DNA of 64,000 bases from Eledone cirrhosa (Eukaryota), in NCBI GenBank assembly GCA_964016885.1, contig OZ024743.1:289416001-289480000 (forward strand), given 5' to 3'. Below, piece by piece: positions 4,599 through 46,317 of this stretch. The translations under genes were made by a program, and so were the position numbers. Under the pieces are notes generated by a model that saw nothing but the letters and a program-made list of their open reading frames with translations, did not search any database and was not told where the DNA came from. Every line of letters begins with the position of its first letter. Position 1 is the stretch's first letter.

Positions 4599-4770
4599 TA
4601 TAGAAATGGCTTCTACAGGACTACAACTGTTTCATTCGAAGGGCTTTCGTGATGATTTCCTTCGAATGAAATAGTTCTAGTCCTGTAGAAGCCATATCTA
4701 TATTAAATATTTACACTCTGCTATGTATTGAGTACCTTACTTACTGTGGTTACCCCCGATAGAACCCGGG
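4599..4770 (+). mobile_element. Short fold-back insert in microsatellite with decayed HHR (relative at 34875-35105)
   Basis: ~42-bp inverted arms around gctttcgtgatgattt; the 34.9-kb copy retains CUGAAGA..GAAA; shared 3' tail. Confidence 0.6.
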
Positions 4771-5242
4771 ATACACACACACACACACACACACACACAC
4801 ACACATATATATATATATATATATATATGTATATATAAACTCATAGTATTGGCATGAAATTATGTGGGAGGGCAGAAATCGATTATATCGAACTAGGACA
4901 AAATGCTTTTCAGTATTTAGTTACGACTAGGCCAACTTTGCCTTTTATCCTACCGGGTTCGATGACATAAAGTACCAGTTGAGTACTGGGTACTCTATTA
5001 ATATCTTACGCTCTCTGGATTCTGCCAATCCGCTGCCCTCATCATACATATACATAATAATGCACATACACACACTTGCATACACATAGCTCGAACTATG
5101 ATGGAGGTATTTATATAAGGTAAAAACTATTATATATATATGTGTATATCTGTATTTATATATATATTCGTTTATATACACATACGCACATACTTGCACT
5201 TATATATAAATGCATGTATGGGCGTATTTTGAAACTCTGCTC

Positions 5243-5333
5243 CATATCTGAGGATCTTGGGATTTCAGAGTCAGGTTTGATCATTGCATCGATCGTGCCT
5301 CGAACTATTCGCCAGAAAAACGATTGTAATATG
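5243..5333 (+). ncRNA. HHR-like motif lacking G12 (relative at ~24385-24680)
   Basis: CAUAU CUGAGGA long stem II ..AAAA CGAUUG UA AUAUG; GAAA replaced by AAAA in both copies. Confidence 0.5.
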
Positions 5334-5445
5334 TCTAATAAATCTTATTCGTCGCACCACTGATTCTCCGTTTCTTATGTGATATTTATTTATATATATA
5401 TATATAAGAAAAATGGAGCGCTGCGTGGTTGTAAATGGGTTACAT

Positions 5446-5546
5446 ATGAATAAAATTAGTCCTTCATCAGTGATCTTCCCACTTTCATTGGTATATGAAA
5501 TACCAATGAAAGTTGGAAGATCACTGATGAAGGACTAATTTTATTT
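5446..5546. repeat. Fold-back palindrome in TA-flanked insert (family relative at ~41610-41710)
   Basis: taaaattagtccttcatcagtgatcttcc..ttcattggtat / ataccaatgaa..ggaagatcactgatgaaggactaatttta. Confidence 0.8.
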
Positions 5547-6229
5547 ATTTATATATATATATATATGTATATACATATATATGTTGGGGTCGTGGTATAT
5601 ATTTACGTTGAGCCTCTGCTGTTTCCATCAACCAATTTGTACTCGCACGGTATTGGTCAACATGAGGTTATTGTAAAAGACGCTTGCTGAATATGCCGCG
5701 CCGTGCGAAACTTAACCCACAACTACATTCCTTTACCACACATGCACGCACTAGAGAGAGAGAGAGAGAGAGAGAGAGAGAGAGGCATACCTACATTCAT
5801 ATCCGAGTAACTACATATTACTTGTTTGTGTAAATACATCTACAGATACATACATGAAGATTTACATAGATGTATAGATATATAATGCATGAAGAAATAA
5901 AAGCCGTGATAAATATTTAGAAGTTAATTGGTGAAAAAAAGCAATTACTTTGAGACCTAAACATAGAGATAGGTATGGAGAGAATTATGGTAAAGAGTGA
6001 AAGATGTATAGAGAAAGGTATTCGGAGAACTTGGCAAAATAATTCTCTTGGAGTTCCAAAATAAAAATAAACCGAAGACCTATATTCTTTGCTTAAACAG
6101 CTGTTGACACAGTGACAAGGCTGAAGAATTTCTTATTATTATTTCTAAAAGACAAAGTCAAAATACGTATCTAGAAATTTCTTTGTTGTTAATAATGTAG
6201 GTTTAGAGGGCGGTAGTTGGGGGTTGTCG

Positions 6230-42274: not shown

Positions 42275-43085
42275 TTAATTGTCTCTAATAAATTATTTCC
42301 TCAGAGAAATAATGAAATACACTAAAACCTAAGCCAAAAATCTCTATTTGGGGGTCTATATACTAGACCGACTAAAATAAGATGTCTAAATATCAAAGAC
42401 AGCTTTATAAATTGATTCACTCCTCCATCATTTTTTAGCAGATTTTGACGGTTTTGACTGCTATTTCCAGCGTCAATATAAACCCGTCATGTTATCCTAA
42501 TACATTCAGTGGGATATATTCATATAGTAATTGAGCGACACAGCACATTGTACACCATGTGGCTCGGCAACGACATAATATGTATGATATAGATTCAGCT
42601 TCTCTTATTCCAAAGAATCCTACTCCTGATGACGGATTTGTAATTCTTCCAAAATTGGTTATTCCATGTTTTGGAATGATCAATGTTGTTTCTTGAATTC
42701 CAGTAACCTGGTCGGGGACCTCTATGAGTAAAATCGAAGTCCCCTAAAAAAGAGATTTTTGTTTAAGTTTTAATATATTTTATTACATCTGTGAGAAGAT
42801 AATTTATTGAGCTGTCTAAATATAAGAGACAATTAAATATATATATTGATTATCAGCTCCATCATTTTTTAGCAGGTCTAGACGGTTTTGGCAACTTCTC
42901 TTATTCCAATGAATTCTACTACAGATGATGGAATTGTAATTCTTCCTCTATTGGTTATTCCAATGTCTTGGAATGGTCAATATTTTTTGTTGAATTCCAG
43001 AATCTATGAGTAAAACTAACTTGTTTTAGTCGGGCTAGCTTCTAGCTCCCTAAATAGAGCTTTTGGGTTGTTTTAATATATTTCA
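42275..43085. mobile_element. Old MITE-like element with long inverted ends and an internal tandem duplication
   Basis: ~42285-42360 is inverted at ~42740-42810 and ~43020-43085; ~42380-42740 is partly repeated at ~42810-43010. Confidence 0.55.
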
Positions 43086-43157
43086 TATATATATATATGA
43101 AATATATATTATTATTATTATTACTATATATATATATGTATATATATATATATATAT

Positions 43158-45100
43158 AATGTATAAAATCAATACAATATAATTACCTCATTACCAGAGG
43201 TTTCCTGAATGAGGCGAATACGAAATAAACGACTTCATTCGTTCGTCAGACGAGGCAATATAAAACATGGGCAAATACTTAGAAAAACACATCAAGAAAA
43301 TCAAAAAAATATATAGATAAATGAAATAGAAATTGAAATATATAAAAATCTATCAAGAAAAATAGTTAGGTGTGTGTATGTGTATGTATATACGCTCATA
43401 AATGTGCATATATGTATATGTGCACGTGTAAATATATGGTTAGAAAGTGTGCGTAATTATAAAAATTTAGGGCAAATGTATCTATATGTCTGTATTATAC
43501 AGACGGAAATGCTCTGCATAAATGAAAAATTTTGGATATTGCAAAATCTCAAATCACCAAAGACCTGCCTGAACACAAAGACGGAAATTTTTACCAGTTG
43601 CCCACACATGAAATCACACCTGCTTTCCAGCTCATATAAACTTAACACACTTTCAGACACTTATCCTCCATAAACTCTGATTATTCTCTTTTTAATTACC
43701 CTTTCTGACTTACTTTCATTCTTATCCTTGTCAATAATTTCATTTATTTTCACTTTTATTTATTTGTTTATTTATTTTTACTTCACCCCCCCCCCCCCCC
43801 TTTATTCTCCGATCCACTTCCTATTTTCTATTTTTTACTTCCCCTTCTTTTACTTCCCTTTTTCCTCTACTAACTGATTATACTTGTCTTTTGTGCTTTT
43901 CAATCCAGATATATTTTTCATTTTTATTTTTATTTTATTTTTACGCAGCCTATCCTACAATTTTATATTTGTATTTATTTATCCACATTTCAATATGGCT
44001 GAACGCCTTAATGTGTGTATACTTTTTTTTATATATGTACATGAGTGACTACGTATGTGCGCGCGCGTGCGTGCATGTATGTGTGTATATATATATATAT
44101 ATATATATATATATATATGTGTACGTGTATGTATGCGTGTGTGTACTGGTGTTTGTGTGTGTGTGTGTGTGTGTATTATGCGTATATGTAAGTGTCTTTA
44201 TATCCGTGGTTTTGACATTTCGGTTTTATATTTTTTTGTTTCTTTTTTCTTCCCCCCCCCCCCTTCCCTCTTTTGTTACTTACCCAGTTTCATACATGGG
44301 CATGCAAACAGGTTTATATGCGCGAGTATAAGTATGTGTGTGTGTGTGTGTGTGTGTGTATGTACGTATCGAACGTATGGAAGTGTAAGTGCGCGTGTGT
44401 ATATAAGCATAATTATTTTTACATTTCTTTTGTGAGACACGCGTGTCTGTGTATGTATGTACCCCCGCTTTTTTTGTTTTCTTTAATTTTTTTCTTTCTA
44501 TCTTGTCTTTCTAATTTATCGTTACTATATTTTTATAAATATATCGTAATAAATACTTTTCTTTTATTTATTATACTCTCTTTATCTCCTTTCTTTCCGC
44601 ATCTAAGTGTACGAGTGTCCAGGCGTTTTTATGCGCGCGACTTTATTTTCTTATTTTTACGAAGTAACCATTTCCGTCTGTATAATACAGACATATAGAT
44701 ACATTTGCCCTAAATTTTTATAATTACGCACACTTTCTAACCATACATTTACACGTGCACATATACATATATGCACATCTATGAGCGTATATACATACAC
44801 ATACACACACCTAACTATTTTTCTTGATAGATTTTTATATATTTCAATTTCTATTTCATTTATCTATATATTTTTTTGATTTTCTTGATGTGTTTTTCTA
44901 AGTATTTGCCCATGTTTTATATTGCCTCGTCTGACGAACGAATGAAGTCGTTTATTTCGTATTCGCCTCATTCGGGAAACCTCTGGTAATGAGGTAATTA
45001 TATTGTATTGATTTTATACATTAAATTTTGCTCTGATATTTACATAGCGCACTCTTCATTTCTATGACCTTTTCTGTTTCCAACTGAAATTTCAATACTT
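43158..45100 (+). mobile_element. 5'-truncated, 5'-inverted Neptune-type PLE in (TA)n
   Basis: ORF end MLCINEKFWILQNLKSPKTCLNTKTEIFTSCPHMKSHLLS (43509-43673), 3' UTR, HHR 44922-44997; 43158-43511 is the reverse complement of ~44669-45023. Confidence 0.88.
44922..44997 (+). ncRNA. Type I HHR (mirror copy 43183-43258 on minus)
   Basis: UUGCCUCGU CUGACGA a CGAAUGA..UCAUUCG g GAAA CC-ucu-GG UA AUGAGGUAA; 9-bp stem I. Confidence 0.88.
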
Positions 45101-45554
45101 ATATATATATATATATATATATATATATATATATATATATATATATATATATATATATATATATATATATATATATATATATATATAATATATATATATA
45201 TATATATATATATATATATATATATATATATAAATATATATATATATATAAATATATATATATATATATATATAAATATATATATATAAATATATATATA
45301 TATATAAATATATATATATATATATATTACCTCCGATTCAACCCGGAATAACGTACCTATATATATATAAATATCTATATCTATATATCTATATCTATAT
45401 ATATATATACATATGTGTATATATATATATATATATATATATATATATATATATATATATATATATATATATATAGATATACATATGTATATATATATAT
45501 AGATATATATATATATATATATATATATATATATATATATATATATATATATAT

Positions 45555-45966
45555 ATGTAGAAGATATATTTAAATTGTTGGGATACAACAAGCACATATT
45601 TTTATAACTGATATAAAGCACTCAACAAATTATTGGAGTAAAAATACGATATATTAACAAATGGAAACTATATTTATAAAACCATATTTATTTCATTTTA
45701 CATATTTCAAGGACACCAAGTCAAATTATGGTGCGCTTTCATCAGATAAAATATAATATAGATCAGTTTTATAAATAAATATTGACATACCCTTAAAGAA
45801 TGCGACCATTTCTGTTGCAAGCTTCCGGATATTTATAAAACTGATCTATATTATATTATATTTTATATGATGAAAGCGCACCATAATTTCACTTGGTGTC
45901 CTTGAAATATGTATAATGAAATAAATATGGTTTTATAAATATAGTTTCCATTTGTTAATATATCGT
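45555..45966 (-). mobile_element. Second copy of the 21.8-22.25 kb HHR family with a different fold-back point
   Basis: HHR at 45689-45753 (-); inverted arm ~45830-45966. Confidence 0.85.
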
Positions 45967-46317
45967 ATATATATATATATATATATATATATATATATAT
46001 ATATATATATATATATATGTATGTATATGTATATATATATATATATATATATATATATATAGGAACCAGTAAGACCCCGACAGCTGAGCTCAAGCCTTTA
46101 CGACGGCTAATTCAGTCCAGAATTAGCCGTCGAAACGGCTTGAGCTCAGCTGTCGGGGTCTTACTGGTTCCTATTACCCACTCTACTACCTCAAGTATTG
46201 AGTACTTTGGTGCGTTATGGTCCACCTGGTTCCTTACCACATTTCTTTCGTTATATATATATATATATATATATATATATATATATATATATATATATAT
46301 GTATATATATATGTTAT

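Follow-up and report, generated by a model that had tools for sequence, protein, structure and literature searches.

Twin hairpins at the two TA-bounded ends of Hydra-clade Penelope-like elements in the genome of Eledone cirrhosa

The choice of internal start sites by Penelope-like elements (PLEs), the closest mobile relatives of telomerase, is an open question, and the sole in vitro study left the binding motif undefined. That study, of Poseidon from Anolis (Frangieh et al. 2024, PMC11167929), found that the PLE tail spans the interval between two internal reverse transcriptase (RT) starts, with cleavage and extension of both target strands and a requirement for RNA lying 3′ of those starts; a dimer was predicted. 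For the Hydra clade of PLEs, the motifs, hammerheads, TA targets and tail are already published in the accessible parts of Craig et al. (2021, PMC8557442). We analyzed a 64,000-nucleotide stretch of the Eledone cirrhosa genome (assembly GCA_964016885.1, contig OZ024743.1, positions 289,416,001–289,480,000, forward strand; hereafter the window), in which a first-pass annotation had noticed eight bulged ACUC…GAGU hairpins upstream of microsatellite junctions. The window copies are short 3′ stubs of Hydra-clade PLEs, and their hairpin belongs to a pair that is a real, new cis-element of this known clade.

The carriers of the hairpin were grouped into families designated by letters. Long copies of family A encode an RT with a C-terminal endonuclease, and head-to-tail arrays of 3,542-nt units retain open frames; in the tandem copies a single 717-aa frame runs from the start codon through the RT to a C-terminal GIY-YIG endonuclease. 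(The genome search with the family-A endonuclease gave 51,157 first-look candidates, 150 of which were scored.) The Hydra motifs RWR (RWK-type), DKT, the CxCX5C linker, and CxxC and CxH around the endonuclease end are present in family A and in five full-length metagenome frames, whereas CxCX5C and CxxC..CxH are missing in 8/8 other PLE frames. In a tree restricted to carriers and eight other PLE frames of this genome, the carriers lie on one side of a 100/100 branch, opposite those eight. The families, called unrelated in the first-pass annotation, are distant members of one clade, the Hydra PLEs, with a median RT identity of 41% among 26 carriers (325 pairs). Hydra frames were also reached from families B, B2, C, D, E, F, J, K, L and N; for families P, M and N3 a link to an open reading frame (ORF) was sought and none was found. 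Insertion into (TA)n was observed for window, genome-wide and family-A copies.

Other assignments were tried and rejected. A Pfam GIY-YIG search for the partner returned mostly Neptune-type and a few Poseidon-type families, and the partner was not among them; two Hydra frames gave no Pfam family match at all. Naiad was ruled out as the linked RT by the C-terminal endonuclease, and a non-LTR (long terminal repeat) retrozyme was discarded because tandem non-coding monomers with a hammerhead each are not what the hairpins in the window sit on: their carriers are solitary stubs derived from coding elements. At the element's own end the strict motif was found in 0/50 loci of other PLE clades (1,500 nt downstream covered, some copies being incomplete). 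A relaxed rule gave 11 matches at these loci: ten belong to one Neptune-type family, lack R-C and resemble hammerhead stem I, and one is a Hydra insertion in the flank.

A hammerhead does not accompany every hairpin. Its core precedes hairpins at one fixed spacing 191 times genome-wide (control, 1) and lies 66–111 nt before the hairpin in 13/13 loci selected for having a core, but no complete core was found in the intact family-A array or before the window copies of families F and G. Family A is a recently active Hydra family that apparently dispenses with the ribozyme. The array at G000:C1:91470500-91490499 (L153, L154) consists of head-to-tail family-A units with at least 99.5% protein identity and open frames, in which a complete hammerhead core was not found. 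In several Hydra hammerheads (File S2 of PMC8557442; L267) stem III has the sequence actc-n-gagt, which matches the lower stem of hairpin 1 letter for letter although the two are separate elements.

In the family-A array, sequence continuing past the end of the tail contains a second hairpin, GCUC-CUAC-loop-GUAG-UA-GAGC-AC, which begins six bases after the junction and is followed by the start codon. The general order is: hammerhead (in most families), end site 1, hairpin 1, 35–65 nt, end site 2, hairpin 2 and, 11–63 nt further on, the start codon. Truncated copies never show hairpin 2, which lies behind the downstream junction; it is never copied into the tailed end, and the first-pass annotation therefore saw one hairpin. 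The consensus is R-C-U-C, a variable upper stem, a U-N bulge, G-A-G-Y and R-C-U.

The ends of the elements coincide with the hairpins. Among 202 TA-bounded ends, 96 fall 0–15 nt before hairpin 1, 100 before hairpin 2 and six elsewhere (196/202 at hairpins), although only 4–7 of the 16–30 TA steps per reference lie in these intervals (four references); most TA steps in the vicinity go unused. With TA microhomology allowed, an offset of six bases is best, fitting most ends at 16/20 family-sites, and offsets of 5 and 7 fit at 14. The distance of 30–70 nt to the downstream junction, stressed in the first-pass annotation, was measured as 31–66 nt; the telling distance is that to the junction preceding the hairpin, ~6 nt. 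When 29 loci were chosen by the endonuclease alone, 10 ended at site 1, 12 at site 2 and 7 could not be assigned. All 11 family-A fold-backs (11/11) have one end of each kind. In the contigs of a DNA sequencing run, which may derive from the genome's own sample, TA loose ends heap at the same two sites (352 and 82 contigs), the depth drops several hundred-fold across site 2, and common hairpin variants are confined to loops or one wobble position. By eye, the same offset also fits four metagenome elements for which an end as well as a read-through copy is present.

Pairing in the upper stem is preserved while its sequence changes. When only the lower stem guided the choice of stems and the bulge was held at 2 nt, upper pairs 1–3 formed in 50/60, 42/54 and 29/44 hairpins, compared with shuffle means of 38, 21 and 16.5 (p = 0.0001 each; the shuffles ignore relatedness, which makes the p-values generous). 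The nearest-stem rule picked the wrong hairpin several times, and the counts are lowered thereby. Taking one hairpin per lineage gives 40/45, 32/40 and 22/31, reached by 0 of 20,000 shuffles. Slid registers pair at 32–36 of 98–120 positions (~30%) versus 92/114 in the true register, and a four-nt bulge register gives 45% for hairpin 1 alone. On the RT tree, with starts set by hand, upper pairs 1 and 2 of hairpin 1 are kept in 21/21 and 20/21 cases across at least four and at least six independent switches, respectively; the lower stem shows one switch at pair 1 and one at pair 2. Lower-stem identity in the set from this genome exists partly by construction, and the metagenome set is the unbiased one.

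All carriers are homologous, and in some families (L242) hairpins 1 and 2 look duplicated, so an old motif might have survived by chance through shared ancestry, with no current function. This explanation is largely refuted and very improbable: flank columns are near chance identity (~0.25–0.35), 9/300 tail pairs beat shuffles (mostly known subfamilies), and the stems change in compensating pairs. The first-pass annotation had named, as grounds for doubt, families that are alignable descendants of one ancestor with a motif no better kept than its flanks; the ancestry is indeed shared, but the motif is far better conserved. It outlasts unalignable flanks through repeated compensatory changes. 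Two further arrangements were seen in passing: at L242:2310-2962 two different Hydra elements, each with twin hairpins, stand tail to tail in one TA run, and at L225, L226, L227 and L211 head-to-head inverted junctions at element 5′ ends keep a hairpin in both arms.

The pair is widespread. A genome-wide hairpin-pair pattern matched 367 times for family A (control, 0) and 122 times for other families (control, 9); a looser pattern gave 4,700 versus 2,131 in the control, with many chance and satellite matches. Hairpin 2 was found in read-through copies of families A, B, B2, C, D, D2, E, F, F2, F3, G, H, I, J, K and V, and with a long loop in family L; for family P, 16 pattern matches contained no clear example. 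A metagenome scan by protein yielded 46 Hydra-type loci, 12 of them with enough sequence before the start codon (L263, with 42 nt only, was excluded). By a strict rule eight of the 12 have two hairpins, one has one and three have none, and one of these three carries a GUUC/GAAC variant common to its sister L251; in 1,551 other windows the control gave 11 single and 0 double hairpins. Of the published Hydra consensi (PMC8557442), 4/6, with coral and sea cucumber among the hosts, show the motif by eye, one of them imperfectly: Hydra-2_Amil and Hydra-2_Ajap have it in their tails, Hydra-1_Ajap begins with two copies, and Hydra-1_Crog has imperfect versions at both ends. The Hydra-1_Amil consensus ends a few bases short of the position of the motif in its relatives L249 and L282.

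On these grounds we propose, with a probability of roughly 60%, that each hairpin binds the RT-endonuclease on RNA and sets one internal reverse-transcription start about six bases 5′ of itself. A tandem read-through transcript would fold so that a long helix carries a hairpin at either end; two protein copies would bind, one per hairpin, and the enzyme would nick both strands of the (TA)n target. One nick would prime at site 2 and yield the tailed end, in which hairpin 1 is copied and hairpin 2 is not; the other would prime at site 1 and yield the tailless end. Early joining of the two short complementary DNAs (cDNAs) would produce the lopsided fold-backs that fill the window. The two protein copies and the two-nick step are borrowed from the Poseidon in vitro data.

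The predicted helix arises from the flanks, which are complementary in most families: when the 30-nt segment following hairpin 1 is paired with its counterpart behind hairpin 2 of the same family, the mean is −10.6 kcal/mol (20 groups; reached by 0 of 50,000 permutations), compared with a cross-family median of −5.7 kcal/mol, and the flank of the own family is the best partner in 13/28 families. Because the helix is antiparallel, one hairpin is predicted at each of its ends. In six folded examples hairpin 2 and the site-2 linker always lie inside the long helix, and some hairpin stems are in a shifted register. A clade-wide scaffold of two-fold symmetry, in which the hairpins sit at opposite ends of one covarying helix, each with one protein copy and a six-base ruler, and both TA strands are primed at once on one RNA, is a tentative extension that we rate below even odds. 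If true, a single step would account for the PLE tail, for the pseudo-LTR and for the lopsided fold-backs, and the scaffold would constitute a portable signal programming the start of a telomerase-related RT.

Several observations weigh against this proposal and its extension. The long helix ranks first in only 9/20 groups and 1, 6 and 8 of 20 in three families added later; it is weak in D, J, m251 and m259 (the last was mis-anchored in this pairing test and excluded from the later strand tests), and whole-region folding z-scores of the six examples range from −2.8 to +0.2. In the strand tests the antisense duplex is more stable than the sense one in 14/20 groups, the excess over cross-family pairs is similar for both strands (−5.5 vs −4.7 kcal/mol; 13/27), and 20 G.U versus 23 A.C oppositions do not favor the sense strand. 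Upper pair 2 of hairpin 2 is kept in only 13/20 cases. The 202 ends include 105 from family A and were partly selected by tail patterns, and TA microhomology blurs each end by 1–9 nt. The strict rule detects no hairpin in 3/12 metagenome loci, and none was seen in the examined ends of the Hydra-1_Obim consensus. Finally, the hairpin is not a precondition for having two ends, since a Neptune-type family that lacks the motif also has two bounded by TA. In a Neptune-type family with a hammerhead (3′ ends of L106, L107, L109, L115, L116 and L120), the two TA-bounded end sites are separated by ~50 nt, an interval that holds a possible hairpin of another kind.

The lack of strand preference, together with stems that are mostly Watson-Crick, would suit hairpins acting on single-stranded DNA: copying would pass them, and the endonuclease, guided by folded DNA, would cut the intermediate back to a TA some six bases from the hairpin. 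Craig et al. (PMC8557442) attribute the tail to endonuclease resolution of an intermediate, and the Drosophila Penelope endonuclease, as cited in PMC11167929, needed the tail to recognize DNA. Poseidon RT starts measured on RNA, however, already coincide with both genomic ends (PMC11167929), and half-stem spacings of 6 to more than 40 nt exclude a plain reading of double-stranded sequence. A common variant of family-A hairpin 2 also favors the sense strand, with ~40 of 100 listed copies having U.G and one having C.A by eye; it is the only strand test to do so. We consider trimming on DNA unlikely and infer that the hairpin acts as RNA. The earlier suggestion of a cis-acting RNA element is partly borne out: a covarying, position-fixed structure in PLE-type elements is supported, and a part in RT recognition or priming-site selection is plausible, while the strand tests as a whole gave no preference for the sense strand.

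Hairpin 2 lies 11–63 nt before the start codon in 17/19 families examined, and the long helix often reaches that codon. The folded region might accordingly serve mainly as a switch for protein capture or translation (cis-preference, packaging), and the ends would then lie next to it owing to exposure of neighboring single-stranded UA linkers by bound protein, with no ruler involved. The equal offset at both hairpins in many families and the strict one-of-each ends suggest measured positioning instead, and we regard a mere switch as distinctly improbable, more so than DNA trimming.

Within the window, each of the eight sites noticed earlier was found at its coordinates (21550–21569 on the minus strand, the others on the plus strand), and the folding of the four clear hairpins (4715, 12970, 24608 and 21550 minus) matches the structures first drawn. 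The three weaker sites exist in reduced form: 22169 has a 2-bp upper stem, 23409 is decayed and 39635 has mostly lost its upper stem; intact forms are TAC-ttcg-GTA for family M (L040, cf. 23409) and TGC-tct-GCA for family G (L215, cf. 39635). A microsatellite follows each of the eight at 31–66 nt. Two details needed adjustment: the short bulge is kept as U-N (UU, UA, UC), hence not always as two pyrimidines, and the lower stem is not fixed as ACUC, its first pair being G-C in most relatives. Eight further copies and one split copy were found in the window. The copies start with (TA)n, followed by an inverted and a forward arm; a short linker rich in TA leads to the hairpin, and a microsatellite comes 31–66 nt later; in 12/16 window hairpins a tailless inverted arm ends in (TA)n right before the hairpin. 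The hairpins and related coding fragments are as follows.

4715–4736, plus strand: hairpin 1 of family P; the hammerhead core lies at 4649, the inverted arm runs out in (TA)n at ~4590–4600, and the tail extends to 4772.
12970–12996, plus: hairpin 1, family A; inverted arm of the element 3′ region ends at 12482, tail to 13043.
20602–21032, minus: broken Hydra-type endonuclease coding fragment, 35–41% identity to the family-A protein.
21360–21386, minus: hairpin 1, variant of family A whose lower stem includes a U.G pair; absent from the first-pass annotation.
21547–21569, minus: hairpin 1, family L, 1-nt bulge; hammerhead at 21646 (minus), inverted copy at 21689 (plus), Hydra ORF link in L288.
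22169–22191, plus: hairpin 1 of family B2, with its hammerhead at 22062; the inverted arm stops at 21787 and the tail at 22253, and L171 links the family to a Hydra ORF and hairpin 2.
23409–23431, plus: decayed hairpin 1, family M; hammerhead-like core at 23331, inverted arm looked for and none found.
24608–24635, plus: hairpin 1, family F; inverted arm ends at ~24385, tail to 24680, Hydra ORF and hairpin 2 in L206.
25134–25160, minus: hairpin 1, family A; fold-back 25089–25282, absent from the first-pass annotation.
32465–32707, minus: broken Hydra-type endonuclease coding fragment, 32% identity.
34950–35070, plus: hairpin 1, family P, loop split by a ~100-nt insert; hammerhead at 34879.
39218–39244, plus: hairpin 1, family A variant with U.G; fold-back 38881–39291.
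39635–39651, plus: hairpin 1, family G, upper stem mostly deleted; hairpin 2 and Hydra-type start in L215 and L228.
45030–45053, plus: GCUC-type hairpin 1 of family N3, containing one mismatch, with a hammerhead at 44931; it belongs to a fold-back of 1.9 kb, the other arm of which ends at 43154, immediately short of the hairpin.
45617–45639, minus: hairpin 1, family B type; fold-back 45557–45968.
46180–46206, plus: hairpin 1 of family A, sharing 98% identity with the terminal part of an intact tandem unit; fold-back 46059–46251.
46656–46682, plus: decayed hairpin 1, family A.
57684–57707, minus: hairpin-1-like site, family not assigned, 31 nt before a TA run.
60689–60714, minus: hairpin 1, family A; fold-back 60644–60823.

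The abundance of the hairpin exceeds chance. A strict descriptor matched seven times in the window, representing five families, against a mean of 1.1 and a maximum of 5 in 200 block shuffles; when a microsatellite 30–80 nt downstream was demanded the seven matches stood against a mean of 0.107 and a maximum of 3 (1,000 shuffles). In 40 evenly spaced 10-kb stretches, 9/16 strict hairpins preceded (TA)4 by 30–80 nt, versus 4.9% of random positions, and ACTC came top of 96 four-letter stems, with nine before (TA)4 and three for the next best. Across the 3.0 Gb scanned, a genome rich in microsatellites, the pattern with an unconstrained upper stem gave 49,114 forward matches versus 1,984 with a reversed control pattern; overlapping ends inflate the minus-strand counts. 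Twice the forward count corresponds to ~100,000 repeats in this genome.

Helentrons and DINE-1 elements combine a Rep-helicase partner, fixed short subterminal repeats, offset inverted repeats and a 3′ hairpin. The lopsided inverted repeats of the window copies, with a hairpin near the 3′ end and a location inside microsatellites, recall such rolling-circle DNA elements, to which we nonetheless give almost no credence: arm length is variable (tens to hundreds of bases), long copies have RT and GIY-YIG domains, hammerheads and head-to-tail units, and the linked frames refute the assignment.

Other repeats were recorded in the window. The insert at 34956–35055, inside the family-P hairpin loop, is TA-flanked with CAG..CTG ends and Tc1-MITE-like (miniature inverted-repeat transposable element). 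A 476-bp tandem repeat at 18897–20458 (2.3 copies, 98% alike, plus an inverted copy) does not contain the RCUC hairpin; it has a type I hammerhead per copy (19239 minus, 19715 minus, 20173 plus) and is a separate, retrozyme-like family. A hammerhead-like fold with a long stem II at 960–1030 has no hairpin nearby. An abundant ~190-bp repeat resembling short interspersed elements, often in tandem pairs, occurs at 1978–2356, 17949–18300, 22749–22929, 40283–40471 and 59945–60130, and a mariner-type transposase remnant flanked by 106-bp inverted repeats occupies 23490–24337.

A hairpin of 20–30 nt that keeps a constant distance to both ends in elements with only ~40% RT identity is testable by a few point and spacer mutants and can serve as a marker for the true ends of Hydra families. 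Folded elements that fix an RT start or a nuclease cut include hepatitis B epsilon, the telomerase template boundary, the R2 3′ untranslated region and the subterminal DNA hairpins of IS200/IS605. In contrast to these, the element described here is doubled and lies 3′ of an internal start. A family match was checked via Rfam only: the twin-hairpin region gave no meaningful match, and among the 150 listed of 266 Rfam 15 matches in the window there were only microsatellite-driven ones below the gathering cut-off. No description of the hairpins was found in the accessible full-text literature, including the text of PMC8557442, PMC11167929, PMC3846280, PMC4209133, PMC7229834, PMC6765202 and PMC13282606 (figures, Repbase and subscription papers were outside this scope).

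Non-LTR retrozymes (Cervera and de la Pena 2020, PMC7229834; Li et al. 2026, bioRxiv 10.64898/2026.07.22.740005) are likewise short non-coding repeats with type I hammerheads and an origin from PLE ends, but in the window each copy is a lone stub, truncated or folded back, of an element with coding capacity, not a tandem monomer, and the shared hairpin is not described in the available parts of those papers. The published Hydra elements, as far as the accessible parts of PMC8557442 extend, share the single ORF with RT and C-terminal GIY-YIG, RWR/RWK, DKT, CxCX5C, CxxC and CxH, the (TA)n targets, hammerheads, inverted truncated copies and a tail at one end; the hairpin, its twin arrangement and the long helix are unmentioned there, and tails are 60–100 nt here versus 30–40 nt there. 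Family A differs further in being 3.5 kb long and abundant, with near-identical tandem arrays and no complete hammerhead core. Poseidon (PMC11167929) likewise inserts into AT-rich targets, a tail lies between its two ends, and the RNA downstream (3′) of its starts has been implicated. It belongs to another clade, in which initiation was placed within one AC-rich stem loop and the binding motif is undefined, whereas in the Hydra elements a defined hairpin stands just 3′ of each end, outside the copied part.

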